64,000 nucleotides of DNA from an uncultured Christensenella sp. Lineage in GTDB: Bacteria; Bacillota; Clostridia; Christensenellales; UBA1242. The DNA is taken from contig CAYVXW010000005.1 of assembly GCA_964455585.1 (NCBI GenBank), positions 1,972 through 65,971 on the forward strand, in the 5' to 3' direction. The notes under the pieces are model-generated. The model searched no databases. It saw only the letters and a list, made by a program, of their open reading frames with translations, and was not told the origin of the DNA. Shown piece after piece: positions 10,319 to 63,378 of this stretch. The position numbers and the translations under genes are program-made. Every line of letters begins with the position of its first letter. Positions within the stretch are counted from its first letter, which is position 1.

Positions 10319-12028
10319 ATGGCATACGGACAAATGAGTTTATTTGATGGCAGTAAAGATTTTGTGATAAATAAACCTATTAGATTAATTGAATTGTTTG
10401 CAGGATATGGTAGTCAGCACTTTGCTTTGAAATATCTAGGTTTAAATGTTGAAAGTTATAAAATTTGCGAATGGGCAGTTAAAAGTATTCAAGCTTATAA
10501 AGATGCACACTTTTCAAATGATAACACTGATTATTCTGAAACTTTGTCTTATGATGAAATTGTTCAATGCTTACTTAAATGGGGAATCAGTGCAAATTAT
10601 AACGAACCAATGGCAATAGACCAAATCAAAAGAATGGGTGAAGCAAAATGTAGACAAGTCTATAACAACATTAAAGCAACTCACAACCTAGTTAATATTC
10701 AACAAGTAAATGGTAAAGATCTTGAGATTGTTGATGTAGACAAATATACCTACATAATGACTTATTCGTTTCCTTGTCAAGATTTGAGTATGGCAGGGTT
10801 GAGAGAAGGTATGGCAAAGGGCAGTGGAACAAGAAGTGGGTTACTTTGGGAAGTTGAGAGAATTTTAGATGAAATTTCCTCAGCCGATAAAACTAAACTA
10901 CCACAAATTCTACTAATGGAAAATGTTCCAGAAGTTATAGGGAGTGCTAATATATCACATTTTGCTGATTGGTTAAAGAAATTGGAAGAGTTGGGTTATA
11001 GAAATTATAAACAAATACTTAATTCAAAAGATTATGGTGTCCCTCAAAACCGAGCAAGGTGCTTTATGATTAGTCTATTGGGTGATTACTATTATGGGTT
11101 TCCTCAGCCGATAAAACTAAATGACAAGTTAAAAGATATTCTCGAAGAGAATGTTCCAGAAAAGTATTATTTGTCTGAAAGAGCATTGAAAGGTTCTTTG
11201 AATACAAATTTTGCTTGTTCAAAACTTGAAAACAAACTGCCTAAAGACGGTATTATTCCTACACTTTGTGCAAGAGATTACAAGGATCCAAAATGTGTTA
11301 TGGTTGAAATTCCAAAGGTAAACATAAACGGAAAGGACTACGATGTTACGAAAAATTGCGAAAATTATATTGAGCGGCACCAAAAGGGTTTGTTAGATAT
11401 GGAGACTAGAGCATGGAAAGATAACAAAATCGCACCGACATTACACACAAATTGTGGAAAAACTAAAATTTTGGAAAGTCAAAATTTAAAAACAAAATTG
11501 TGTAACGACTTAATCACTAGTGGGAAAGTTAAGGAAGGTGATGTGATTAGACACTCGTATAGTTCAAGTCGTATGAAAAATTTTTATGTTTCTAATTCCG
11601 AAAACCCAGATTGCAGTCCAACACTTGATACAAGATGTGATTGCTTGGGTGTCGTTGTAAAAGTGAATAGCAATAATAAAAGATTACAAGACCTTGTTTC
11701 AAAGACACAATTTGGGGATGATACATTGGCTTTAGATTGTTATAACCAAACCACACATAAAGACTTTATGCAAACAATTAAAACTAGTATTGATACTAGT
11801 AATATGAATATGATTTATACCGATTATCGTATTCGAAAATTAACTCCTAGAGAGTGCTTTAGACTTATGGGAGTAAACGATATTGACTTTGATAAAATTG
11901 CTCAAAACCAATCAAATGCGAGTTTGTATCATCTTGCAGGAGATAGTATTGTTGTCAATGTCTTAATGGCAATTTTTAAACAAATGCTAAAAGGAGAAAA
12001 CAATGAAAACGACAAAATTACAAATTGA
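10319..12028 (+). CDS. DNA cytosine-5 methyltransferase with oversized target-recognition region
   Basis: Motif I LFAGYGS, IV SFPCQDLS, VI LMENV, VIII QNRARCF, IX RKLTPRECFRLMG, X AGDSIVVNV. About 260 aa lie between motifs VIII and IX. Confidence 0.85.
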   Translation: MAYGQMSLFDGSKDFVINKPIRLIELFAGYGSQHFALKYLGLNVESYKICEWAVKSIQAYKDAHFSNDNTDYSETLSYDEIVQCLLKWGISANYNEPMAIDQIKRMGEAKCRQVYNNIKATHNLVNIQQVNGKDLEIVDVDKYTYIMTYSFPCQDLSMAGLREGMAKGSGTRSGLLWEVERILDEISSADKTKLPQILLMENVPEVIGSANISHFADWLKKLEELGYRNYKQILNSKDYGVPQNRARCFMISLLGDYYYGFPQPIKLNDKLKDILEENVPEKYYLSERALKGSLNTNFACSKLENKLPKDGIIPTLCARDYKDPKCVMVEIPKVNINGKDYDVTKNCENYIERHQKGLLDMETRAWKDNKIAPTLHTNCGKTKILESQNLKTKLCNDLITSGKVKEGDVIRHSYSSSRMKNFYVSNSENPDCSPTLDTRCDCLGVVVKVNSNNKRLQDLVSKTQFGDDTLALDCYNQTTHKDFMQTIKTSIDTSNMNMIYTDYRIRKLTPRECFRLMGVNDIDFDKIAQNQSNASLYHLAGDSIVVNVLMAIFKQMLKGENNENDKITN

Positions 12029-12260
12029 AGCTAGAACTTCAACTATGGAGAAAACAATAAAAGGTCTCGGAATTGAAATAGGGGATATTGTAAGAGTTGG
12101 ACAAGCAATTCTAATATGCACAGAAAAATATGATCTTGTTGATTTTGCAAGTGGCAAATACTCTTCAAGTGTTCCTAATTTAATTTTAGGTATGGTGTCT
12201 GGGAAAAATGAATACACGGTCTTTAAAGTTTCAGAAATGGTGGTTTATACTCTGCAATGA
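12003..12260 (+). CDS. Hypothetical small protein
   Basis: RBS AAAGGAG. Overlaps the flanking methylase genes. Confidence 0.35.
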   Translation: MKTTKLQIEARTSTMEKTIKGLGIEIGDIVRVGQAILICTEKYDLVDFASGKYSSSVPNLILGMVSGKNEYTVFKVSEMVVYTLQ

Positions 12261-12991
12261 CACTTGGAAGATTTGAATTAAACAAAGTGTATAACGAAGA
12301 TTGTTATAAAGCAATCAAAGATATCCCAGACAAAAGCATTGATTGTATTTATGTTGATATTCCTTACTTGTTTATGGGGGGGGGTGGAGGCACCAGCCGA
12401 ATCGCACAGCAAGTAAGTAAAATGAAACAAGAACTCAAGGATAATAACATTTATGATGGTATTGATTACAAAATATTTGAAGATTTTGTTAGAGTTCTCA
12501 AAAAAATAAATTGTTTCATTTGGTGTAGTAAAGAACAAATTTATCCAATTTTAGATTGGTGGATGAAAAATACTGACTGCACCTATCAAATACTTTGTTG
12601 GTGTAAAACAAACCCTGTTCCAATGTGTAATGGTAATTGGTTAAGTGATATTGAATATTGTTTGTATTTTAATCGTGGAACGAAATTGAACGATGGAATA
12701 AAACATAAGAGTAAGTGGTATTTAAGTCCACTAAACCAAAAGGATAAAGATAGTTTTGGACATCCAACCATTAAGCCATTGCCATTGGTTGAAAGACACT
12801 TATTACATACAACACAACCAAATGAGATTATTGCAGATTTCTTTTGTGGTAGTGGAACTACTTGTGTTGCTTGTAAAAATAATGGAAGAAATTACATTGG
12901 TTTTGAAATCAATGAAGAGTGGTGGAAAGTTGCAGAGAATAGATTAAACAACATAGATTCTCGTGGGCAAATTAGTCTTTTCACCAAATAA
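12257..12991 (+). CDS. Beta-class N6-adenine/N4-cytosine DNA methyltransferase
   Basis: Motif IV DIPY near the N-terminus and motif I FFCGSGTT near the C-terminus (circularly permuted beta-class order). Confidence 0.8.
   Translation: MTLGRFELNKVYNEDCYKAIKDIPDKSIDCIYVDIPYLFMGGGGGTSRIAQQVSKMKQELKDNNIYDGIDYKIFEDFVRVLKKINCFIWCSKEQIYPILDWWMKNTDCTYQILCWCKTNPVPMCNGNWLSDIEYCLYFNRGTKLNDGIKHKSKWYLSPLNQKDKDSFGHPTIKPLPLVERHLLHTTQPNEIIADFFCGSGTTCVACKNNGRNYIGFEINEEWWKVAENRLNNIDSRGQISLFTK
12376..12384 (+). repeat. Poly-G tract (9 G) inside the N6/N4 methylase coding sequence
   Basis: Read directly: ATG GGG GGG GGT, encoding MGGG just after DIPY. Confidence 0.9.
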
Positions 12992-40198: not shown

Positions 40199-40326
40199 TC
40201 CAAAAGCATCAAAAAGAAAATTCGTTTTCAAGGCAACACTTATCCTATACCACTTGGTAGAAAACACTCCGAACTAGGAGTAGGTTAGTAAATAATTGAA
40301 AGCTTACTAGGGGAAATAGATGGTTT

Positions 40327-41406
40327 ATGAAAAGAGTAGGATATATTTATGAAAAGATTATTGATTTGCAAAATTTAGAGTTGGCAATTGTAAAAGCATG
40401 TGAACACAAAAAGAAAAATAAGTTTATTGTTCATTTGTTGGAGAATAAAAGTTCATATGCTCAAGAAATAAGAACTCTAATTTTACAGGAAGATTTCCAT
40501 CCTTTAATCATTAAACATAAGAAAATAAAAGAAAAGACCAAAGTAAGAGATATTGCAGTTCCAAAGTTTTATCCAGACCAAATTATTCATTGGGCAGTTT
40601 GTTTACAATTGAATCAGATATTTATGAAAGGTATGTATCATTACAATTGTGGCAGTGTTCCAAATCGTGGTGGAGTTTATGCTAAAAAATATATCGAAAA
40701 ATGTTATTCAATATTAAAAGAGAAAAAATCTTACACGTTGAAACTTGACATTAAAAAATATTTTTACAACATTTCACACGAAAAAATGGAAGAATTGTTT
40801 CGAGAAAAAATTAAAGATGAAAGAGTTCTTGAAATGCTACACAAAATTATTGATTGTGGGGAAGATGGTTTACCAATAGGGTTTTATACATCCCAATGGT
40901 TCGCAAATTTTTATCTTCATAGACTTGATAATTATATAAAACAAGTATTACAAATTAAATACTATATTAGATATGTAGATGATATGGTTTTAATTGATAC
41001 AAATAAACGAAAATTACACAAGGCAGTTGAAGAAATACAAAAATATCTCGATAACAATAGTTATTGTGTAACACTAAAAGATAATTGGCAGTTGTGGAAA
41101 ACCTTTTCTCGACCACTTGATTTTCTAGGATATAGGTTCTACAAAAATTATACATTGTTGAGAAAAGGAATTCTCAAGAAAATGAAAAGACAAATCTTGA
41201 GAGTTGGAAAAGAAAAGACTTTGAGAATATGTAGGGCAAGGGCATTGACTTCGTATATGGGTTGGTTAAAACAAACAAGCATATCAAGGAGTTTCTATGT
41301 CAAACATATTAGACCTACTTGCAGTAAAAAATGGGTTGGCAGAATAATATCACATGATAGTAAAAGGAGAAATAAAAATGATAATAAAAGACGGAACAAA
41401 CCCTAA
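40327..41406 (+). CDS. DGR reverse transcriptase
   Basis: RT motif 5 IRYVDDMVLI (YxDD). DGR-type motif 4 LPIGFYTSQWFANFYL. 359 aa, directly downstream of TR. Confidence 0.9.
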   Translation: MKRVGYIYEKIIDLQNLELAIVKACEHKKKNKFIVHLLENKSSYAQEIRTLILQEDFHPLIIKHKKIKEKTKVRDIAVPKFYPDQIIHWAVCLQLNQIFMKGMYHYNCGSVPNRGGVYAKKYIEKCYSILKEKKSYTLKLDIKKYFYNISHEKMEELFREKIKDERVLEMLHKIIDCGEDGLPIGFYTSQWFANFYLHRLDNYIKQVLQIKYYIRYVDDMVLIDTNKRKLHKAVEEIQKYLDNNSYCVTLKDNWQLWKTFSRPLDFLGYRFYKNYTLLRKGILKKMKRQILRVGKEKTLRICRARALTSYMGWLKQTSISRSFYVKHIRPTCSKKWVGRIISHDSKRRNKNDNKRRNKP

Positions 41407-43594: not shown

Positions 43595-43603
43595 GGGGGG
43601 GGG
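43595..43603 (+). repeat. Poly-G tract (9 G) upstream of the lipoprotein gene
   Basis: Read directly. Immediately followed by TATGAT, 65 nt before ATG 43668. Confidence 0.9.
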
Positions 43604-43667
43604 TATGATAGGGTTAGAGAATGTACTTTTTGCATTCAAAAATTTAAAAATTAAAAAAGGAGAAAAT

Positions 43668-45263
43668 ATGAAAGAAAAATTTAAAAAACTTTTAAAAATG
43701 TTCGCGATTTGCTGTATGGCGCTCATTTCGTGCTTCTCGATTTTTGCTTGTGGCGAAACACCTGACGACCCAGAAACTCCCGGCAGTGGAACTGAACAAG
43801 AATTGCCAGAAGGCGTTACAGGTACTCCTGTTACCGAGACTACTGCGGTTGATAAATTCAATCAATTGAAGACTGCAAGGGATGCAATGACTCCAAACAA
43901 CGGCTACACTTACACCGACGAAGGTACAACCAAAATGGAAGTAACACCAAACTGGGATGCTTTTGAGAGAAATAAAGTAGCAAAAATGGAAGGTGAAGAT
44001 GTTTCACTTGCCGATGATACTACTTTCACTGCATTCAAAGGTACCATTGATGCAGGTCTTTCTCGAATGAATGATGACTATTCTAGCAAAGAAATTATAT
44101 CTTACAATAGCACTACTAAAAATGGATATAATTTGTATGAATCTTCTAGTGGAGATAAGACATATGAAATTTCGGATATCGAAAATAATATGTTGTATGA
44201 TTATTCTAGCAATACATACACAGATAGTGGTAATAATACTCTAGAATACAAACGTAAATACAACATTGACCAAAACTACTATAACCAATTCACTTATGAC
44301 TTCTATGAAAATATGGAATATAGCGTTGGTGAGGTTCTAAAAGACACTTTGGAAGACACCGAAAGTTATCTAAGAAATGGCTTTGAATCAATGGGTCTTA
44401 CTTTTAGTGAAGATGACCTTGGATTTACTTTTGAAGAAGAAAACGGGCTTTATACTTTGGTTATCTATGCAAATGTAACAGATAAAACAATGAATTTCTA
44501 TGGTGAAAGCCTTACAGGTGCGGACTTTACAATGTCGCTAGTATTCAAATTTAATTCTACTATGCTAACAGAACTTAGTGCGGTTATGAACCTTGATGCA
44601 ACTATGGCTATGCCTGTAGGTCAAGATGCAAACGGAAATGACGTAAATCTTTCGATTGCTTTTGATATGGACAACACCCAAAAATTCACTTTCTCAAACA
44701 CCTATGACGCCGAGCACGCTCCAACGTACGTTGCTAGTGAGTTTGTAGGCGATGGCTATGATGATGGCGAACAAGTTGTAACAAATAATTCTTCAAATGT
44801 ATGTCTACATATTGGCGATTATGAGTTTGGAAATGTAGATTTTAAAATGGGAGATGCTTTAAATTATAGCGATCCTTGGATTTTTAGTGGTTTTGTTACA
44901 GGTGGACTAAACGGTATTACTTGGTATACCGACAAGGCTTGTACTCAAGCATTTATAGGAAATATGCCATCTTATGACATTAACCTTTATGCAAAATATA
45001 GTGATGCTTTGGCAAAATTGGATACCAATCACGTATTTGTTCTTGAAATGTATACAAGCAACTATGTTTCTAGTGTAGACTATGAGGCTTACAGTGAGCC
45101 TAGAATTGATGTAACTGAAAAAACAGGAACAGTTAACGCCGAATATTACACTTGTGCATATGTAAATGGCACAAAAGTAGAAGCAGGTCAAAGTTATACT
45201 CTAAATACAGGCCTAAACAAAATTATATTTGTTTACAATCCAGAATATTATTATTATTATTAA
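43668..45263 (+). CDS. Surface lipoprotein with C-terminal Listeria-Bacteroides repeat
   Basis: Start ATG 43668 behind AAAGGAG. Signal peptide with lipobox SIFAC|G. ITWYTDKACTQAF...INLYAKY. Ends in YYYYY. Confidence 0.7.
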   Translation: MKEKFKKLLKMFAICCMALISCFSIFACGETPDDPETPGSGTEQELPEGVTGTPVTETTAVDKFNQLKTARDAMTPNNGYTYTDEGTTKMEVTPNWDAFERNKVAKMEGEDVSLADDTTFTAFKGTIDAGLSRMNDDYSSKEIISYNSTTKNGYNLYESSSGDKTYEISDIENNMLYDYSSNTYTDSGNNTLEYKRKYNIDQNYYNQFTYDFYENMEYSVGEVLKDTLEDTESYLRNGFESMGLTFSEDDLGFTFEEENGLYTLVIYANVTDKTMNFYGESLTGADFTMSLVFKFNSTMLTELSAVMNLDATMAMPVGQDANGNDVNLSIAFDMDNTQKFTFSNTYDAEHAPTYVASEFVGDGYDDGEQVVTNNSSNVCLHIGDYEFGNVDFKMGDALNYSDPWIFSGFVTGGLNGITWYTDKACTQAFIGNMPSYDINLYAKYSDALAKLDTNHVFVLEMYTSNYVSSVDYEAYSEPRIDVTEKTGTVNAEYYTCAYVNGTKVEAGQSYTLNTGLNKIIFVYNPEYYYYY

Positions 45264-56490: not shown

Positions 56491-57361
56491 TATAAAATTT
56501 GGCACAATTGTAAAAGCGGTTGGTGGAATATACTATGTCCAAGTATGTGGCGAAGTGGTTGAATGCGACATTAGAACTACTGCCAAAAAGACAAGACTTG
56601 TTGTGGGCGATAGGGTCGAAATTGTACCCAACAACTTTAGCCAAGGAAAGTATATAATAAAGAAAGTGTTGGAGCGAAAAAACTCCATTCCTAGGCCACC
56701 TATTGCAAATTTGGATAAATTACTTATCCTTATTTCTCCACGTCCCGAACCCGACCTAATGCTTGTTGACAAACTTATTATTTACTCCTATCTAAACGGC
56801 ATTGAGCCTATTATAGTAATAGGCAAAATAGACATTGCGAGTAGTGAGTTTGTAGAGAGTATAAAGAGGCAATATGCTTTTTTGAAAGTGTTTGAAATTA
56901 GTGCACTAAGCGGTCAAGGCGTAAGCGAGGTTGAAGGGCAACTTTCGGGCTCGTTTGTGGCACTTGCGGGGCAATCGGCGGTTGGAAAGAGTTCGTTTAT
57001 AAACGCACTCATCCCAAACAAAAATTTGGAGATAGGCGGACTTAGTAGGAAGATAGATAGAGGCAAACACACCACAAGAGTAAACGAAATTTATCTTAAC
57101 AAAGACTATATGATAGCCGACACAACGGGCTTTAGTAGTCTAGATTTAGATTTGGATTACACCGAACTAGCGGGATTTTATCCCGAGTTTGAGGAGTGTT
57201 TGGGAAAGTGCAAGTACTTAGATTGCTCACACATAAAAGAGGGCAAAGATTGTGCCATCACAAAAGCCGTAAATGAGGGGAAAATATCTAAGGAAAGATA
57301 CAATAGATATGTGGCTTTGTATGGGGTGTTAAAGAAAAAATGGGAGGAAAAATATGATTAA
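56480..57361 (+). CDS. rsgA: Ribosome small-subunit biogenesis GTPase
   Basis: Circularly permuted GTPase: GKID then AGQSAVGKSSFINAL. C-terminal zinc motif CKYLDCSH...C. Confidence 0.85.
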   Translation: MEDNIKFGTIVKAVGGIYYVQVCGEVVECDIRTTAKKTRLVVGDRVEIVPNNFSQGKYIIKKVLERKNSIPRPPIANLDKLLILISPRPEPDLMLVDKLIIYSYLNGIEPIIVIGKIDIASSEFVESIKRQYAFLKVFEISALSGQGVSEVEGQLSGSFVALAGQSAVGKSSFINALIPNKNLEIGGLSRKIDRGKHTTRVNEIYLNKDYMIADTTGFSSLDLDLDYTELAGFYPEFEECLGKCKYLDCSHIKEGKDCAITKAVNEGKISKERYNRYVALYGVLKKKWEEKYD

Positions 57362-58013
57362 GGTTTTGCCTAGTAGCAACCCTTGTTCCGAGGATGACTT
57401 GGTGGAGTACTGTAGGTCGCTTGAGGACTTGGGAGTAGAATATGTTCATTTGGACGTAATGGACGGGGCTTTTGTTGAAAACAAATGCCTAAGTTTAGAT
57501 AAAATTGCAGAAGTTAGAAACAATAGCAATATTTTGCTTGATGTGCATCTAATGGTGTCCAATCCACTTGAATGGGTTCAAAAATTGGTGGATTTAAAGC
57601 CAAATATTGTAACTGTTCACTTGGAGAGCGTGGACACTATTTCCGAGATGGAAAAGATAATTAGATTGCTAAAGCAAAACGACATTTTGTTTGGCTTGGC
57701 ACTCAAACCCGAAACCGAAGTGGAAGCCATTACGCCATATCTAGATAGGCTTGATTTGGTGTTGGTTATGTCGGTTAAGCCGGGGAAAAGTGGTCAAACG
57801 TTTATTTCTACCTCTCTTCAAAAAATAAGTGATGCAAAAAAACTAATTGGCGATAGATTTGTTTTGCTTGAGGTTGACGGCGGAATAAACGAAGACAACT
57901 ATGAAAGTGTAGTGGACGCTGGGGCGGAGTTCTTGGTTATGGGCAACGCTTTTTATGGGGCAAAGTCTAGGGAAAAATTGCTTCAAAAGGTGGATACGCA
58001 CTATTTGTTCTAA
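57354..58013 (+). CDS. rpe: Ribulose-phosphate 3-epimerase
   Basis: HLDVMDGAFVEN, DVHLMV, VMSVKPGKSGQTF, EVDGGIN. Confidence 0.85.
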   Translation: MIKVLPSSNPCSEDDLVEYCRSLEDLGVEYVHLDVMDGAFVENKCLSLDKIAEVRNNSNILLDVHLMVSNPLEWVQKLVDLKPNIVTVHLESVDTISEMEKIIRLLKQNDILFGLALKPETEVEAITPYLDRLDLVLVMSVKPGKSGQTFISTSLQKISDAKKLIGDRFVLLEVDGGINEDNYESVVDAGAEFLVMGNAFYGAKSREKLLQKVDTHYLF

Positions 58014-58022
58014 TGCTTATTT

Positions 58023-58757
58023 GTGTTATACCGAGAGGGTGCAAAAGCACGAACCGAGTGTATCTATTTCGATGCGACAACTTTTATAGATATACTCCGT
58101 TCGCTCATTACATTCGCTCAGTCGATATGACACGGGTTGAATATTATATGTGTCATACCGAGAGAGCGTAAGCGAACCGAGTGTATCTATTTCCAATTAA
58201 CCACTTTTCGTTCTAGATTCTTCCGCTTTCGCGTTCAGAATGACATAAACCGAGTGATTGCACCACTCGTGTCATTCTGAGGAAGGCAACGCCGACCGAA
58301 GAATCTAAAATGTGCAGTTTGATTTTGGTAAGGATTATCCTTATAGATATACTCCGTTCGGAAACTAATGTTTCCTCAGTCGATATGACACCAAATAATA
58401 TTCTCCCCGTGTCATACCGACCGAGGGGGTTGAAACGACCGAGCGGAGTAAATCTATAAAAATCATCCTCTTGTACTTTTTCACTTTTCACTCTTACTTC
58501 TTCACTTGCAAGGCCATGCCTTGCGTGTGTCATACCGTATTCGACCGCAAGGGAGAATCGCCGTCACCCACTAGAGCACATTATGTAGCGTACACTTGTG
58601 ACGGCACAAAGACTTGGTAGGTTGCTATTACATAAAGCAAACAAGTGAGCGGAGTGTATCTATTGGGTTATCCTCTTGTACACTTCTTCACTTTTCACTT
58701 TTACTTATTACTTGTGGCGACCCTGTTGTCACTTGTCATTCTGAGTGGGTGTAGCCG
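58023..58757. repeat. Mosaic repeat cluster 1 (families A, B, C and long variant D)
   Basis: A units at 58023, 58086(rev), 58150, 58343(rev), 58409. B at 58211(rev), 58271, 58735(partial). C at 58467, 58672. D at 58527-58663. Confidence 0.85.
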
Positions 58758-58830
58758 TATTTTTGTAATTAACACCTAATTTTATGTTTTTTCATATAAT
58801 TAAGTAGTTTATGCGTGCAAAGGGGGAAAT

Positions 58831-58911
58831 ATGAAAATTTATTGCTTTAAGTCGCCAAAGTTTTTAAAACCGCTACTAATATTAATTTTTAAGAAGAACT
58901 ATAGCAAATGA
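58831..58911 (+). CDS. Possible 26-aa leader ORF
   Basis: Strong RBS AGGGGGAAAT. MKIYCFKSPKFLKPLLILIFKKNYSK. Its stop overlaps the next ATG (ATGA). Confidence 0.25.
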   Translation: MKIYCFKSPKFLKPLLILIFKKNYSK

Positions 58912-59156
58912 AAATAATAATTTATGTGGATTTTAGCCACAAAGATTTTAATAAAGACTTTATGTTGTCACAAAGTTTGCTACCCGACCACACCGTTTTG
59001 CTTGTGACAAACAAAGAACAACTTAGTAGTAGCATTGGGACTTATGACCTAGTACTACTAGGTTTTTCGTGTGCGGAAGGGGTTAGTGTGACGGGGAAGC
59101 CCGTGTTTGATGCCAAAACCGCCAGTATTAGCGAACTTAATAAGATTTTAAAATAG
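58908..59156 (+). CDS. Hypothetical 82-aa protein
   Basis: ORF followed by terminator hairpins at 59169-59200 and 59223-59268. Confidence 0.4.
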   Translation: MKIIIYVDFSHKDFNKDFMLSQSLLPDHTVLLVTNKEQLSSSIGTYDLVLLGFSCAEGVSVTGKPVFDAKTASISELNKILK

Positions 59157-59306
59157 CCTTAGTTTCCGCCATCTTTTAGGAAAGGTGGCTATTTTTTTGG
59201 ATAATAAGGGCGTAGAGAATAAAGTATCTAAAAAAACTTTTATTCGGATACTTTGGTTTTTTGTTTGCTTATAATTTTAAGTTAATGTAAAATAATAAAG
59301 TAAATA

Positions 59307-61562
59307 ATGAAATTTGGAAAGGTTGCAAGCGTGACAAAAAAAGACAATAGGTATTATGGTGCAAAAAAACGCCAAATGCCATTTAGTTTAATATTGTTAA
59401 TATGCTTGGCAGTGTGTATTGTTAGCACTACTGTGGCATATTTTTTTGCATCCGATTGGGCAGGTAAATACACCACAATGTCCGGTAAAGTAGATATCGA
59501 GGCGGTCAGTAGCACGGGCTCAAGCATTGAGGATAGAGTAGACGGCGATGTAACCATATCCAATTTGAAAGTGTCGCTAGAGGATAACTACAAGTTTTTA
59601 ATTTCAGGTATGGATATAAAAATGCCCGCTTATGTAAAGGTATATCAGTCCACCACAAAGCCTCTCCTTAGGGCAAAGTTCTCCCTTAAACTATATAAGA
59701 CCACAACTGGTGGTGATGTGCTACTAGAGGGGACAAGTGACCCCAAAAACATTTCTACCCAAATGACCTCAAGTATACACTCGGTTATAGAGACAAATGG
59801 TTGGGTTCTAAACGATGATGGATATTATTATTACATAAAAGGTAGCACCATTCAAGACCCTGTTTCTAATACAATAATGTACGAAGTCGATGCAACGGCG
59901 GGTAATGTTATTGAGCCGTTTGTAAAGGATACCGACCTTATCAAATTTCCCGAGGATATTGATGCCTCCTATTCGGGTTTGAAAATTAAGTTTTCAGTCA
60001 CCTTTGAGGCTATACAAAATTATATTCCAAACCCCGATGACGATGGAAAAACCAACCTTCCAAACACAATTGCCAATTCAAAGCGTATCTTTGATGATGG
60101 CGACGAAATTGGTGGGGGGGGGGCTAGCCTAACGGAGGAAGAAATCTTCCAAATATATCTAGACGCCCTAAACAATATGTCCACAACCCCAACGGGCGGA
60201 TATGTGGCAAATAGCATAGGTTTTGGTTTCCAAAACGGATATAGTGAAGGTGAAAAAATAACAAGCGCCTATAATGGTAATAGTTATGATTCTTTGTACT
60301 TTATTCTTGAAGATAGCCCTACAACCTCGTATGTTGAATATGACCCTTATTCGGATGCTGTAATCTACTGGTATCCTAAAAAAGTTGACAACAAGTATGT
60401 GGTGAAGTATGTAAATGGTGGCGAATTGTACCAAGATGACGAAGTTACGGTCAATGACCTTGCAACCGCAGTTTCGGATCAATATTCGTCCGTTGTGGAA
60501 GCGATAAAAAAGGACTCTTTTGGTTTAAGTGGTTCCACATCTTTTTCTGGATTTTATGAAGAAATAAAATTAGTGTTCCTTGAAGACTATGGCTTTAGCG
60601 AGCAAGTCGTGGACGCAAATGTAAATTACACCTTGGATAAAAGTGGTGGGGTATATAATTTTGTTGTTAGTGGTGATTGTGCGGAGTATATTGATGGCAC
60701 TTGGACTAGACTAAAAATGAGTGCTACAGTCAAATTCAATGGTACTATGGTTTACAAATCTTCCTTTGAACAATTGGAACAAGTGGGCACTTTGCCTAGC
60801 GATATTACTGAGGAATATAGGGTTGTCGAGGACTATGCAATAGAAGGTTATTCAACCAAATATAAGCCAGACATATCGGACATAGAAATACCGGAGGAAT
60901 ACAACGAAATTCTTAAATCGGCATATGCCAAAATGAACGCCAATAACGGCTTTGTGCTTAAGGATTATACCTGGATAAGTTGGACTGGTGAAGGTGACGT
61001 AGATAGTGGTGCGTTTGGTAGAATATCCGCATACGATGGCACTAATAAGGAATCGGCATATAGTGTGGAAAAATATTTGGATGTGGTGGATTATACCGAT
61101 TGGTCAAAGGGTGTGTTGGACTTTTATTATGCGTTCGGCTATGAAGATGGTTCATTGTACTATTACAATAGCGACAATAAATCTATAGCAACAGATAGTA
61201 ATAAAGAAAAAGTTGCAAGTGACCAAATTGAAAAATTTAATTCGGCTTTATCTACAATTGGTGACTATATTGGCGAAACGGGTGGTGATACGGTTACTAA
61301 TTTACGTGATGCGTTAGTCAGTTTTGGTGTTTCGGAATCTGAAATAGTGGCATCGTACACAAAAAATGGTGACACCTATAAGATATCTGTTACTGGAACA
61401 GTTGAAGGGGTAAGGTGGGAATGTGCTATTGAGTTTACTGAAGACGCCATAACTAAGTACTATTTTAAGATAGAACAAAACTATCCTGACAAGGAAAATG
61501 GTGCTTGGCATTATAGTGGATACGATTTTGAAGCCTATAGCACTACTTATAAGCCTATATAG
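59307..61562 (+). CDS. Large secreted/surface protein with SipW-type (TasA-class) signal peptide
   Basis: N-terminal PFSLILLICLAVCIVSTTVAYFFASD resembles the SipW-cognate signal class (..gTyAyFtD). 751 aa, T/S/Y/G/D-rich. Confidence 0.6.
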   Translation: MKFGKVASVTKKDNRYYGAKKRQMPFSLILLICLAVCIVSTTVAYFFASDWAGKYTTMSGKVDIEAVSSTGSSIEDRVDGDVTISNLKVSLEDNYKFLISGMDIKMPAYVKVYQSTTKPLLRAKFSLKLYKTTTGGDVLLEGTSDPKNISTQMTSSIHSVIETNGWVLNDDGYYYYIKGSTIQDPVSNTIMYEVDATAGNVIEPFVKDTDLIKFPEDIDASYSGLKIKFSVTFEAIQNYIPNPDDDGKTNLPNTIANSKRIFDDGDEIGGGGASLTEEEIFQIYLDALNNMSTTPTGGYVANSIGFGFQNGYSEGEKITSAYNGNSYDSLYFILEDSPTTSYVEYDPYSDAVIYWYPKKVDNKYVVKYVNGGELYQDDEVTVNDLATAVSDQYSSVVEAIKKDSFGLSGSTSFSGFYEEIKLVFLEDYGFSEQVVDANVNYTLDKSGGVYNFVVSGDCAEYIDGTWTRLKMSATVKFNGTMVYKSSFEQLEQVGTLPSDITEEYRVVEDYAIEGYSTKYKPDISDIEIPEEYNEILKSAYAKMNANNGFVLKDYTWISWTGEGDVDSGAFGRISAYDGTNKESAYSVEKYLDVVDYTDWSKGVLDFYYAFGYEDGSLYYYNSDNKSIATDSNKEKVASDQIEKFNSALSTIGDYIGETGGDTVTNLRDALVSFGVSESEIVASYTKNGDTYKISVTGTVEGVRWECAIEFTEDAITKYYFKIEQNYPDKENGAWHYSGYDFEAYSTTYKPI
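60114..60123 (+). repeat. Poly-G tract (10 G) inside the surface-protein coding sequence
   Basis: Read directly: GGT GGG GGG GGG GCT, encoding GGGGA. Confidence 0.9.
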
Positions 61563-61650
61563 ACAAAAGGTGGGCTTCCACAAAGAAATTGGCAAAGGTG
61601 TGGTGCTTAAGGACACATGCTTTGAAAAATACTATTGAAACTATTGTTTT

Positions 61651-61700
61651 GATTTGAAAAAATACTATTGCGACAGTTGTTTTGTTGCAATAGTATTTTT
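61651..61700. terminator. Bidirectional terminator
   Basis: AAAAAATACTATTGC...GCAATAGTATTTTTT, a 10-bp stem flanked by A-run and T-run. Confidence 0.6.
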
Positions 61701-61745
61701 TATAAATATTTATAAGGGCAATCCTTATAAAAATCAAATTGTACG

Positions 61746-62872
61746 TTCTAGATTCTTCCGCTGTCGCGTTCAGAATGACATAAACCGAGGATTGTTCCGC
61801 CCGTGTCATACCGAGAGAGGCACATCGTGCCGAACCGAGTGTATCTATTTTCAATTATCCTCTTGTAAACTTTTTCACTATTCACTATTACCTGTGGCAA
61901 TTCTATTGCCACCTGTCATTCTGAAGCGAAGCGAAGAATCTCTATTTTCAATCATCCTCTCGTGTCACACCGAGAGAGTGCAAAAGCACGAACCGAGTGT
62001 ATCTATTTTAATAGGACAACTTTTATAGATATACTCCGTTCGGCTACTATCATAGCCTCAGTCGATATGACACACGTAATAAACCATTCTTGTCATTACA
62101 TAAGCGAAGCGAAGAATCTCTACTTTAGGTCGACCTCTTGTACCTCTTCACTTTTCACTATTACTTATTACCTATGGCAATTTTATTGCCACTCGTGTCA
62201 TACCGACCGAGGGAGTTAAAAACGACCGAGCGGAGCGTATCTACTTTCAATCCAAGCCAACGGCTTCCGTAACTCTTATTTTTTATTTTCAAGTCGCTAG
62301 ACTGGTCTGTCATTCTGAGCGGGCTTTAGCCCCGAAGAATCTCCGCCGTTCGTTTTGCTTGGTTGTAATATGCACTGCACGTTCTAGATTCTTCCGCTTT
62401 CGCGTTCAGAATGACAAATAAGGATGATTGAAAGTAGATACACTCCGCTCGTGCTATCGCACTCGGTCGGTATGACACACGCAAGACATAGCCTTGCAAG
62501 TGAAGAGGTGAAGAGTAAATAGTGAAGAGGTGCAAGTGGATGAATTTTAGTCTATGTCATTCTGAGCGGGCTTTAGCCCCGAAGAATCTAAAACGTGGAG
62601 CGAGGCAATTCGTGTCATATCGACCGAACTGGTGCCAACCAGTGAGCGGAGCATATCTATATAAATCTAACCGCTTGTACACTTATTCACTTTTCATTCT
62701 TCACTATTACCTGTGGCAACAGGGTTGCCACCTCGTGTCATACCGTATTCGACCGTAAGGGAGAATCGCCGTCACCCACTAGGGTACATTATATAGTGTA
62801 CACTTGTGACGGCACAAAGACTTGGTGGTTTGCTATTCCTTAAATCAAACAACGGGAGCGGAGTGTATCTAT
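61746..62872. repeat. Mosaic repeat cluster 2 (families A, B, C and long variant D)
   Basis: A at 61803, 61962, 62025(rev), 62195, 62435(rev), 62612. B at 61746(rev), 61915, 62092, 62309, 62382(rev), 62556. C at 61859, 62134, 62479(rev), 62671. D at 62735-62872. Confidence 0.85.
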
Positions 62873-62895: not shown

Positions 62896-62925
62896 AAAAA
62901 AGCCAAGCGGTTTGCTTGGCTCTTT
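62896..62925 (-). terminator. rpmB terminator
   Basis: AGCCAAGC-GGTT-TGCTTGGCT with a T-run on the minus strand. Confidence 0.65.
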
Positions 62926-62927
62926 TA

Positions 62928-63122
62928 TTAACAACAATGGTCGTTATTCTTAAGTGTTTTAAGACATTTTGTACAAATGTACTCGTTTTGGATTTTGCCG
63001 TCTACTTCGATAGATTTCTTTTGTAGATTGGCACCCCAAGTTCTTCTTGTAGCGATGTGAGAGTGACTTACTTGGTTTCCAGCCACCTTTTTCTTACTAC
63101 ATATAAAACATTCTTTTGCCAT
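62928..63122 (-). CDS. rpmB: 50S ribosomal protein L28
   Basis: MAKECFICSKKKVAGNQVSHSHIATRRTWGANLQKK matches the L28 N-terminus. Start moved to ATG 63122. Confidence 0.85.
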   Translation of the reverse strand: MAKECFICSKKKVAGNQVSHSHIATRRTWGANLQKKSIEVDGKIQNEYICTKCLKTLKNNDHCC

Positions 63123-63378
63123 AGTGTAATTCACCCCCGAGGTATTTTATCTGTATTTTGTTTCAAACAAATAGAGTATAGCAAATTAAAATGGAGTTGG
63201 CAAGACTTTTTTGAAAGTTTTGTTAACTTTAGTCAATTATTTTTCTAAAATCCCTTGCCAAATGTGCTTTCTTATTGTAAAATTAGTATGTAGTATCATT
63301 GTGGGCTTTGTCACATTACTATTTTTGTGTAAAGTTCTATGATGTTACAATAACAATTACTTAGTAAGGAGAGATATA

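Follow-up and report, generated by a model that had tools for sequence, protein, structure and literature searches.

Two intergenic mosaics of short repeat units, at positions 58023-58759 and 61750-62872, enclose a pair of genes between rpe and rpmB in an uncultured gut Clostridia lineage. The window, i.e. the whole stretch of DNA analysed, is 64 kb long; the mosaics are filled with units and none occur elsewhere in it. We suggest, with a probability of about 80%, that the mosaics are arrays of Ssn-related motif (SRM) hairpins, of the TGTC/CGTC-tagged REP superfamily, that expand two adjacent intergenic gaps and are targets of Ssn. Judged by sequence, the repeats are a divergent gut-Clostridia form of a family published in 2025. 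In brief, Chenal et al. (Nat Commun 2025) identified the CGTC-tagged REP superfamily as the SRM motifs, and Ssn proteins are 94-aa GIY-YIG ssDNA nucleases that bind SRM and cut beside them (PMC11893778). The hairpin is bound as ssDNA only and the cut is made upstream of it; in Neisseria, cleavage is determined by the GTC 5' of the palindrome and binding by the C 3' of it (PMC11893778).

The first-pass annotation described two mosaics of about 28 units in three families, and the unit map (n=28) bears this out, with 13 A, 9 B and 6 C units on both strands of the 64 kb. The A family comprises 11 short (40-49 nt) and 2 long (136-137 nt) copies, and the B family 7 intact, 1 degenerate and 1 truncated copy. 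A and B units lie on the plus strand in 15 cases and on the minus strand in 7. Allowing up to 2 mismatches, GTGTCATACCGA has 19 matches against 2.3 expected, 14 of them within the mosaics. The corresponding values for GAGTGTATCTAT are 22 against 4.5, with 13 within the mosaics, and all 8 exact copies of GTCATTCTGA are found there. A covariance model run with filters off restricts the A units to both mosaics. A generic scan for GTC plus a 5-nt stem, followed by the complement plus C, was uninformative (44 matches vs ~39 expected). The short ORFs called over the mosaics lie wholly inside repeat units. The modules are listed below, where each A-type or B-type hairpin is a putative SRM hairpin.

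Mosaic 1
58023-58066, plus strand: A-type hairpin, 10 nt past the rpe stop codon (covariance model, 50.3 bits)
58087-58133, minus strand: A-type hairpin (unit map; covariance model, 56.8 bits)
58150-58189, plus strand: A-type hairpin (unit map, covariance model)
58215-58244, minus strand: B-type hairpin with GCGAAAGC in its core (unit map)
58271-58306, plus strand: B-type hairpin (unit map; covariance model, 20.7 bits)
58298-58350, unstranded: 53-nt spacer module, with an inverted copy at 61706-61758 (83% complementary)
58344-58391, minus strand: A-type hairpin (unit map, covariance model)
58409-58456, plus strand: A-type hairpin, basal stem partly decayed (unit map, covariance model)
58467-58524, plus strand: C module, reading CCTCTTGTAC, a (TTCAC)n pyrimidine run and a 7-bp hairpin that abuts the tag of the next unit
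58527-58662, plus strand: long A unit of 136 nt with A-type ends, a ~95-nt insert replacing the apical hairpin; 91% identical to 62735-62872
58672-58732, plus strand: C module (repeat-family map)
58735-58759, plus strand: truncated B unit, 5' half only (unit map)

Mosaic 2
61706-61758, unstranded: inverted copy of the 53-nt spacer module, pairing with 58298-58350
61750-61779, minus strand: B-type hairpin (unit map)
61803-61847, plus strand: A-type hairpin (unit map, covariance model)
61859-61912, plus strand: C module (repeat-family map)
61915-61941, plus strand: B-type hairpin with GCGAAGC in its core (unit map)
61962-62005, plus strand: A-type hairpin (unit map, covariance model)
62026-62073, minus strand: A-type hairpin (unit map, covariance model)
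62092-62119, plus strand: degenerate B unit, 5' stem ATTAC, not ATTCT
62134-62192, plus strand: C module (repeat-family map)
62195-62243, plus strand: A-type hairpin (unit map; covariance model, 57.1 bits)
62309-62342, plus strand: B-type hairpin (unit map)
62386-62415, minus strand: B-type hairpin (unit map)
62435-62478, minus strand: A-type hairpin (unit map, covariance model)
62481-62539, minus strand: C module, inverted pair (repeat-family map)
62556-62589, plus strand: B-type hairpin (unit map)
62612-62659, plus strand: A-type hairpin (unit map, covariance model)
62671-62731, plus strand: C module (repeat-family map)
62735-62871, plus strand: long A unit of 137 nt (unit map; block identity to mosaic 1)

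The modules had also been described as chained in a fixed grammar. One half of this stands, as all 6 C modules run straight into an A or B unit, but the other half, a C module after the 3' end of A, applies in only 4 of 6 cases. Multi-unit blocks are common to both mosaics at 87-98% identity, and part of the copy number is therefore due to block duplication or gene conversion, not to independent units.

The A and B units begin with an unpaired (T/C)GTC tag followed by a basal stem starting AT. The stem contains one or two modules in which 5'-CGAN-3' stands opposite 5'-N'GAG-3', i.e. a C-G pair, a tandem G·A/A·G and a closing Watson-Crick pair. The apex is a variable mini-hairpin, often GCGAAGC or GCGAAAGC, and an invariant C comes after the stem, giving units that read (T/C)GTC·AT...AT·C with a CT(A) 3' tail. 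Short A and B units are 27-49 nt long; the long A copies are beyond the 20-50-nt size range of SRM. In an alignment of 30 distinct A units, G4, T5 and C49, the last lying 3' of the palindrome, are invariant and C6 is at least 90% conserved; these are the positions that govern cleavage and binding in the Neisseria SRM. All B units start with GTC, and all intact copies end in ...GAATC.

The predicted fold of the A units is supported by covariation. Across the 30 distinct units 93.7% of cells are paired, against 79.2% when shuffled, and the covariation score is 0.302 against 0.099; neither value was reached in any of 500 shuffles, and slid registers of the alignment all score well below this. Of the closing pairs, 16 are CG and 14 GC, and no unit is unpaired there. 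A separate count of 41 units gave a Watson-Crick closing pair in 41/41 and a Watson-Crick basal pair in 39/41 (C-G 33, T-A 6). Across taxa, the B stem switches between ATTCT/AGAAT and ATCCT/AGGAT. Nearest-neighbour folding with DNA parameters is weak for A and B, with z-scores of -0.2 to -1.9 vs -3.9 to -6.1 for canonical SRMs, so the case for structure is made by covariation and by the fact that G·A tandems and GNA mini-hairpins are known to be stable. The GCGAAGC and GCGAAAGC apical cores of these units are classic DNA mini-hairpins.

Covarying hairpins would fold as RNA too, and the units could instead act at the RNA level as terminators, mRNA stabilisers, processing sites or small ribozymes. 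Their placement fits this, with mosaic 1 directly after rpe and mosaic 2 between convergent gene ends, and in other genomes the unit that stands immediately upstream of each ssn start codon is probably transcribed. We nevertheless consider an RNA-level role quite improbable. In a scan of the mosaics against Rfam 15, covering the hammerhead, twister, pistol, hatchet and RAGATH motifs, no family matched, whether the gathering score or E<=10 with permissive filters was applied. A single array holds units on both strands, which would put sense and antisense copies in any transcript, no unit is followed by a T-run, and the apical cores are classic mini-hairpins of DNA. The Neisseria SsnA does not bind RNA (PMC11893778). 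Clustered ribozymes of the hammerhead or twister type were considered for the GUC and CUGA...GAA look of the units, and were rejected on the negative Rfam scan and the lack of a consistent three-stem topology.

The first-pass annotation did not recognise the three families, and had held that a match to a known named repeat would speak against its reading. By our assignment they are in substance such a repeat, as members of the CGTC/TGTC-tagged REP superfamily (PMC3733652), i.e. the Ssn-related motifs (PMC11893778). Its description of a REP/BIME-like intergenic hairpin mosaic was right in kind. In common with SRM, the units have a (C/T)GTC tag that is unpaired, a stem whose first bases are AT, a hairpin, and a C directly following the stem. 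Clustering around membrane-protein genes is likewise shared, as is the bracketing of a 94-aa single-domain GIY-YIG gene, by A-type units in other genomes. The GTCATTC...GAATC ends of the Neisseria NTS resemble family B, and the GTCATAC...GTATC ends of NTSvar resemble family A. Unlike those of SRM, the stems found here are broken by conserved tandem G·A modules, sometimes in two tiers, the apical hairpin is freely variable, two copies hold ~95-nt inserts, and the units are chained with an additional element, the C module. Nothing in the published Ssn/SRM system corresponds to family C or to the long A inserts.

The published SRM search pattern, HGTCWYN(0-2)YYVSBRHN(0-5)WNVSBRGN(0-2)RNCYNB, matches both Neisseria controls, NTS and NTSvar. 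It gave 0 matches in the 64-kb window and in loci L002, L003, L005, L008, L024, L030 and L032 from other genomes, and we therefore regard the units as a divergent SRM variant. It should be noted that the pattern is its authors' search heuristic and no functional definition, and that it demands an uninterrupted GC-rich stem.

The CGTC-tagged REPs described by Di Nocera et al. in 2013 include Neisseria dRS3 and Rickettsia RPE-4/6 (PMC3733652). The units here share with them the unpaired CGTC tag, which in many repeats is TGTC (PMC3733652), AT at stem positions 1 and 2, and a 3' tail that is short and unpaired; in both cases there are dimers and clusters with either orientation, and a tyrosine transposase is not associated. 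CGTC REPs have a continuous 8-9-bp stem, a 4-5-nt loop and a CCA tail, whereas here the stem is interrupted and the tail is CT(A). Their reported hosts are Proteobacteria, Chlorobi, Bacteroidetes, Spirochaetes and Thermotogae, and Firmicutes are not among them (PMC3733652). The distribution of SRM was likewise reported as 'mainly Gram-negative' (PMC11893778), and a biological role of Ssn has been demonstrated only in a naturally competent Gram-negative bacterium. The host here is an uncultured gut Clostridia lineage, in contrast to the stress on Gram-negatives in the Ssn paper.

A classical REP/BIME mobilised by a RAYT, i.e. an IS200/IS605-type Y1 transposase, is the reading to which the first-pass annotation pointed. 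The overall look of the mosaics fits, with short imperfect palindromes in alternating orientation in intergenic regions. By analogy, RAYT REPs may also be comparable in that a small dedicated nuclease recognises ssDNA and its gene is bracketed by the repeats. However, RAYT REPs carry a GTAG tag and depend on an HUH/Y1 transposase, whereas the tag here is TGTC/CGTC, GTAG is at neither end of any unit, and the gene bracketed by units is a GIY-YIG nuclease. Di Nocera et al. saw no tyrosine transposase gene flanked by CGTC-type repeats (PMC3733652). A tblastn search with IS608 and IS200 TnpA found none in the window or in 156 loci (1.34 Mb), a weak result given that the probes were approximate. 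We give the RAYT proposal hardly any credence, and the partner to be expected is the 94-aa GIY-YIG Ssn.

Genes for 94-aa GIY-YIG proteins (Pfam PF01541, E 1e-19) are bracketed by A-type units in other Clostridia MAGs, namely at loci L002 and L008 and, as two species-level contexts, at L018-23 and L024-29. The ssnA orthologue of N. gonorrhoeae is likewise 94 aa long, has Y6, Y17 and E64, and is accompanied by 10 NTS repeats within 1.2 kb. The Clostridia proteins are shown at sequence level to be homologous to it, with 44-56% identity overall and 49-56% in the matches with tblastn E 1e-19 (94% coverage) and BLASTP 2e-34 (56% identity), which lies within the published Ssn limits (E<1e-10, >75% coverage). 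One of them, P0134, has Y6, Y17 and E64 in a numbering identical to that of Neisseria. The association extends to distant taxa, as inverted hairpins with a TGTC tag stand on both sides of distant Ssn homologues from Chloroflexi and Desulfobacterales. Exact-form B-type units were not seen beside an Ssn gene.

A purely local tandem amplification, which had been named as a finding that would overturn the REP-like reading, does not account for the units, as they are also dispersed across other genomes. We found them at 9 loci in at least 6 MAGs, including 3 contigs of one related MAG, and the length of the array varies between strains (L024 vs L028). At L011-14 the assemblies break in the arrays. 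A single metagenome match to the A signature, L010, looks like chance; it is GC-rich and coding-like and has no neighbouring units.

No ssn gene is located within the 64-kb window, so Ssn activity at these particular mosaics is something we infer, and the units could be orphans. They would then be orphan or relic SRM arrays with no cognate Ssn and no nuclease-dependent function, changing through slippage, block duplication and gene conversion. The multi-unit blocks common to both mosaics fit this, as do the degenerate or truncated units at 58735-58759, 62092-62119 and 58409-58456. An Ssn homologue is absent from 19% of genomes with >200 SRMs (PMC11893778). Against orphan arrays, most units retain an intact tag, G·A modules, closing pair and 3' C, with compensatory changes, which points to ongoing selection or recent spread, and several related MAGs have both units and Ssn genes. 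We regard orphan arrays as rather unlikely.

The mosaics might also serve a phage or an IS110-type recombinase as attachment or target sites, the part that dRS3 plays for filamentous phages of Neisseria. There is a precedent in that dRS3 is cited as a phage recombinase target (PMC11893778), and the B-type signature is found in at least 120 IMG/VR contigs beside phage structural genes. The flanks of the viral copies all differ, however, and no gene family recurs beside them; across 120 viral contigs the B-type units have only ordinary phage structural genes as neighbours, and 0/120 carry an Ssn gene. Searches of viral, phage and plasmid collections with the A signature, the long A form and the whole mosaic gave no match. 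We found no recombinase or prophage at the mosaics, and no TIR pair or parent IS (MITE features) was apparent there by eye. A role as recombinase targets is in our opinion very improbable.

The genes between the mosaics were first taken for an island between rpe and rpmB. Conserved synteny was found instead, as the order rpe, 82-aa ORF, larger ORF, rpmB is kept in relatives lacking mosaics. The intergenic gaps are 139 and 55 nt in these relatives vs 895 and 1366 nt here, so that, compared with related genomes, the mosaics have been gained or expanded in both gaps. The enclosed features are:

58908-59156, plus strand: enclosed 82-aa ORF, 74% and 57% identical to relatives, with no Pfam or NCBIfam family
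59307-61562, plus strand: enclosed 751-aa ORF with a hydrophobic segment at the N-terminus
60114-60123, plus strand: G10 tract, the junction between the ~270 ancestral codons and an extension of 477 codons

Residues 1-270 of the 751-aa ORF match the complete 258-270-aa protein of relatives. Exact-sequence look-ups of this ORF and of Rpe returned no record. A gain or loss of one G in the G10 tract leads to a translation stop at 273-274 aa, and from its sequence this tract in the predicted membrane-protein gene is frameshift-prone. Further poly-G tracts are found in the genome, one of them inside a DNA methylase; G tracts also lie at 12376-12384 and 43595-43603.

The N. meningitidis Z2491 genome paper reportedly describes NIMEs as dRS3 repeats separating RS repeat units. 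The mosaics are like NIMEs in being dense and intergenic, with small tagged hairpins alternating with longer repeat modules, and in lying beside variable surface-protein genes in a genome that also has homopolymer phase variation. Unlike NIMEs, they occur in another phylum and their family C is unrelated in sequence to RS; moreover, NIME is a Neisseria-specific name.

By homology with Neisseria, we propose that a unit would fold when DNA is single-stranded, be it incoming transforming or conjugative DNA or DNA under replication or repair. A 94-aa single-domain GIY-YIG Ssn, encoded elsewhere in the genome, would bind the unit via the hairpin and the 3' C and nick the same strand a few nt 5' of the GTC tag. 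The hairpin of the C module is positioned exactly where the predicted cut would fall. The outcome would be locus-specific ssDNA cutting on either side of the enclosed membrane-protein genes, which would modulate local recombination and may also drive the turnover and spread of units. By analogy we infer that Ssn is present in this genome and cuts these units, with a biological consequence and possibly a role for the C module.

The Ssn/SRM system is already published and the element described here is no new kind. The distribution of SRM is probably underestimated, because the published pattern misses every unit considered here, including those that bracket Ssn genes in Clostridia, Chloroflexi and Desulfobacterales. 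The tandem G·A and mini-hairpin architecture offers new testable substrates for enzymes in development as site-specific ssDNA cutters. The context parallels that of Neisseria in an unrelated gut anaerobe, with arrays on both sides of a membrane-protein gene that has a G10 switch. Together with the other poly-G tracts, this parallel suggests, by analogy, that SRM arrays and contingency loci are linked in general. We speculate, as an unlikely prospect, that gut Clostridia and many phages may carry a distinct Ssn/SRM branch, with G·A stems and a C-plus-hairpin over the cut site, that is missed by current searches. If true, Ssn-type ssDNA cutting would be far commoner than reported and would reach into Gram-positives and phage genomes. 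At this locus it would then serve as a locus-specific recombination gate around a surface-protein gene subject to phase variation, or else as a conflict system between phage and host that operates on ssDNA.

Between rpe and rpmB we found two blocks, mosaic 1 and mosaic 2, that consist almost entirely of short repeat units and flank two open reading frames.

57354-58013, + strand, rpe
58023-58759, mosaic 1
58908-59156, 82-aa ORF
59307-61562, 751-aa ORF
61750-62872, mosaic 2
62928-63134, - strand, rpmB

The units were mapped with regular expressions, delimited manually and sorted into three families. Family A has 13 units, 11 short (40-49 nt) and two long (136-137 nt), and reads GTGTCATAYCGA...GAGYRTATCTA. 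Family B reads GTCATTCTGA...GAAGAATCT and has nine units, of which seven are intact, one is degenerate and one truncated. The six C units consist of CCTCTTGTAC, a TTCAC-rich run and a hairpin of 7-8 bp. This gives 28 units, the number that the first-pass annotation had estimated. The motifs are far more frequent than expected by chance and, within the 64 kb, confined to the two mosaics. A covariance-model search with the A unit, on both strands and with filters off, matched only the 11 short A units and, weakly, two B units up to E = 1. Of the ordering rules proposed earlier, that an A or B unit directly follows C is borne out, as the tag of such a unit adjoins C in six of six cases; that C follows the 3' end of an A unit is true of four C units and not of the other two.

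The mosaics share multi-unit blocks (58527-58663 and 62735-62872, 91% identity; 58030-58103 and 61969-62042, 93%; 58209-58254 and 61744-61789, 98%), and part of the unit copy number is therefore due to block duplication or gene conversion. A fourth module of 53 nt, with a small palindrome TAAGGATTATCCTTA inside, is found at 58298-58350 and, inverted and 83% complementary, at 61706-61758. Since mosaic 1 has its copy at the inner side and mosaic 2 at the inner edge, the module brackets the two enclosed genes. Terminator-like hairpins at 61640-61704 and 62896-62939, which gave weak false Rfam matches (mir-4841, OrzO-P), bound mosaic 2 and so place it where the ends of the 751-aa gene and rpmB converge. 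The hairpin on the rpmB side is conserved in a relative (L015).

The A and B units share a common plan: an unpaired (T/C)GTC tag, a basal stem starting with AT (ATAC/GTAT in A, ATTCT/AGAAT in B), one or two modules with 5'-CGAN-3' opposite 5'-N'GAG-3', a variable apical hairpin at the tip, and a C directly 3' of the stem. A module consists of tandem G·A/A·G between a C-G pair and a Watson-Crick pair that closes it. Among 41 distinct A-type units, taken both from the window and from other genomes, this closing pair is Watson-Crick without exception (C-G 21, G-C 19, A-T 1); at the fourth basal position, 33 units pair C-G, six pair T-A and two are mismatched. In a MAFFT alignment of 30 distinct A units, 93.7% of cells were paired against 79.2% in shuffled alignments, and the covariation score was 0.302 against 0.099; none of 500 shuffles reached either value, and slid registers all fell far below the true register. 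The covariation support for the A-unit hairpin is thus strong. Nearest-neighbour folding with DNA parameters scores the interrupted stems of the A and B units weakly, with z from -0.2 to -1.9 against -3.9 to -6.1 for canonical relatives with perfect stems. The apical part is GCGAAGC or GCGAAAGC in many units, which we take to be the classic, extraordinarily stable DNA mini-hairpins of Hirao and co-workers that energy models under-score. These cores favor a hairpin at the DNA level. A role of the units as RNA is disfavored by such DNA-specific features, by the mixed unit orientations within arrays and by the Rfam scan, proposed earlier as a check, in which the A, B and C units had no match.

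Di Nocera et al. 2013 (PMC3733652) defined a superfamily of CGTC-tagged REPs, in which the tag is often TGTC, the stem begins with AT and the 3' tail is short. The units form dimers and clusters, e.g. dRS3 of Neisseria, and the authors found no dedicated transposase. As Chenal et al. 2025 (PMC11893778) showed, CGTC-type repeats are targeted by the Ssn family of GIY-YIG nucleases (cd10448), which are single-domain proteins of 94 aa. Their Ssn-related motif (SRM) generalises the Neisseria repeats NTS (CGTCATTCCCGCGMAVGCGGGAATCYRG) and NTSvar (CGTCATACTCGGG...CCCGAGTATC), and SRMs flank ssn genes. In brief, Neisseria SsnA recognises the hairpin in ssDNA alone and binds it neither as dsDNA nor as RNA. 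Its strand-specific cut falls a few nucleotides upstream; cleavage is governed by the three nucleotides that precede the palindrome, and binding by the C that comes right after it. In vivo, SsnA reduces transformation by NTS-bearing DNA. NTS clusters adjoin membrane-protein genes, and SRM-ssn-SRM was raised as possibly a present or past mobile element behind repeat accumulation (PMC11893778).

Family B has the ends of NTS and family A those of NTSvar, and the positions critical in Neisseria are the invariant positions of the units described here. The mosaics are real, and the families, left unrecognised in the first-pass annotation, are explained by this recently described system. New here are the stems interrupted by G·A mismatches, the three-module mosaics and the Clostridia host. 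The expectation of RAYT-type REPs is excluded by the tag, which is wrong for the RAYT class; a search for a Y1 transposase, a weak test, found none.

Scanning 185,579 species genomes, we found the A signature at nine loci in MAGs of uncultured Clostridia (Pumilibacteraceae, Ca. Scatosoma and others); one MAG accounts for three of these loci, on different contigs. Each locus holds 1-9 additional A- or B-like units in both orientations. The units are REP-like, as first suggested, and are dispersed in other genomes rather than being a purely local amplification.

Two of the fetched loci (L002 and L008) have a 94-aa ORF bracketed by A-type units, and this ORF consists of a lone GIY-YIG domain (PF01541, E 1e-19 and 2e-15). 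The bracketed gene occurs in two more contexts, beside an HTH gene (L018-23) and downstream of prfA (L024-29), with one unit shortly before the start codon and an array beyond the stop codon. Two samples representing strains of one species, with identical Ssn proteins, differ in the unit order and length of this array (~355 nt in L024, 3285-3640; ~190 nt in L028, 2842-3030), which indicates rapid array turnover. Distant homologues, ~65% identical, lie between inverted TGTC-tagged perfect hairpins in Chloroflexi (L030) and Desulfobacterales (L032-34).

The Clostridia protein matched two N. gonorrhoeae chromosomes in an alignment that covers 94% of its length at 48.9% identity (E 1e-19). The matched locus, with ten canonical NTS repeats within 1.2 kb and a 94-aa product that has Y6, Y17 and E64, is the ssnA orthologue. 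By BLASTP, its product is 56% identical, without gaps, to the Clostridia protein P0134 (E 2e-34) and 44% identical to the L008 protein (E 7e-24). The Clostridia nuclease is therefore an Ssn by the criterion of PMC11893778. The two matched records are the 2.17-Mb PLSDB entries NZ_CP119140.1 (L157) and NZ_CP119142.1, which are labelled plasmids but are evidently N. gonorrhoeae chromosomes with the NTS-flanked ssnA orthologue.

The literal SRM search pattern, which needs an uninterrupted GC-rich stem, gave no matches among the window units or beside any fetched Ssn gene; Neisseria controls did match. We therefore file the units as a divergent SRM variant and not as canonical members. The hairpins that it misses include those around bona fide Ssn genes in Chloroflexi (L030, 1388-1416 and 1880-1910), Desulfobacterales (L032, ~803-826 and ~1190-1215) and Clostridia (L024, 2933-3640), and thus PMC11893778 probably underestimates both how prevalent SRMs are and their association (71% and 42%).

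The B signature, TGTCATTCTGA...GAAGAATCT, is also present in at least 120 IMG/VR contigs (L037-L156) with a GC content of 32% to 67%, in up to five copies per contig. The flanks are unique and lie between ordinary phage structural genes (terminase-, portal- and capsid-like); GCGAAGC and GCGCAGC are the commonest cores among the matches listed. No Ssn-like protein was found in the fetched stretches of the 120 B-bearing viral contigs among these matches. The Ssn paper does not discuss phages (PMC11893778).

The first-pass annotation regarded the genes between the mosaics as an island. The order rpe, 82/84-aa ORF, larger ORF, rpmB and asp23 is kept in relatives with Rpe 81% and 71% identical, which makes the enclosed genes native and not an island. 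The counterparts of the 82-aa protein share 74% and 57% identity with it, and the complete proteins of 270 and 258 aa in the relatives correspond to residues 1-270 of the 751-aa ORF, with 85% and 54% identity. The two gaps measure 895 and 1366 nt in the window, against 139 and 55 nt without units in the 71% relative; the first gap of the 81% relative, 200 nt long, is essentially empty. The mosaics represent expansions of these two gaps that are specific to the lineage. In the 81% relative, the contigs of four independent Logan assemblies (L011-L014) all stop 47 nt past the second ORF, inside a C-type hairpin followed by the start of a long A unit, which looks like an assembly break caused by the repeats. 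Because these repeats disrupt assembly from short reads, arrays of this kind will be under-represented in MAGs.

In the 751-aa ORF, a G10 tract (60114-60123) sits exactly where the ancestral gene of ~270 codons gives way to a C-terminal extension of 477 codons. Gain or loss of one G leads to a stop at 273-274 aa, the ancestral length seen in the relatives' protein. The tract looks like a slipped-strand phase-variation switch of a membrane-anchored protein, or may be an assembly error. A G9 tract (12376-12384) lies in an N6/N4 DNA-methylase gene (PF01555, ORF 12257-12991), a candidate phase-variable methyltransferase (phasevarion) adjoined by a C5 cytosine methylase gene (PF00145, ORF 10319-12028). 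Another (43595-43603) overlaps the ribosome-binding region (AAGGGGGGGGGTATG) upstream of a 552-aa ORF (43605-45263) that lacks a match in Pfam. For a low-GC genome, three G9-G10 tracts within 64 kb seem unusual. The only Rfam match of the window at gathering score is an RT-18 RNA (40248-40321, + strand, 52.8 bits) directly upstream of a reverse-transcriptase gene (PF00078, ORF 40327-41406, + strand), a retron-like or other RT-associated ncRNA arrangement.

We did not find an ssn gene in the 64-kb window, and an orphan array without an active nuclease is a real possibility. By homology with the Neisseria system, a cognate Ssn in the source organism would recognise the units folded in single-stranded DNA and introduce a nick ~3 nt or more 5' of the GTC tag. 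The C module, which has no counterpart in the published SRM system, places its hairpin exactly where this predicted cut would fall; speculatively, this suggests that it protects or positions the cut site. Arrays flanking the enclosed genes would then direct cutting of incoming or exposed ssDNA at this locus.
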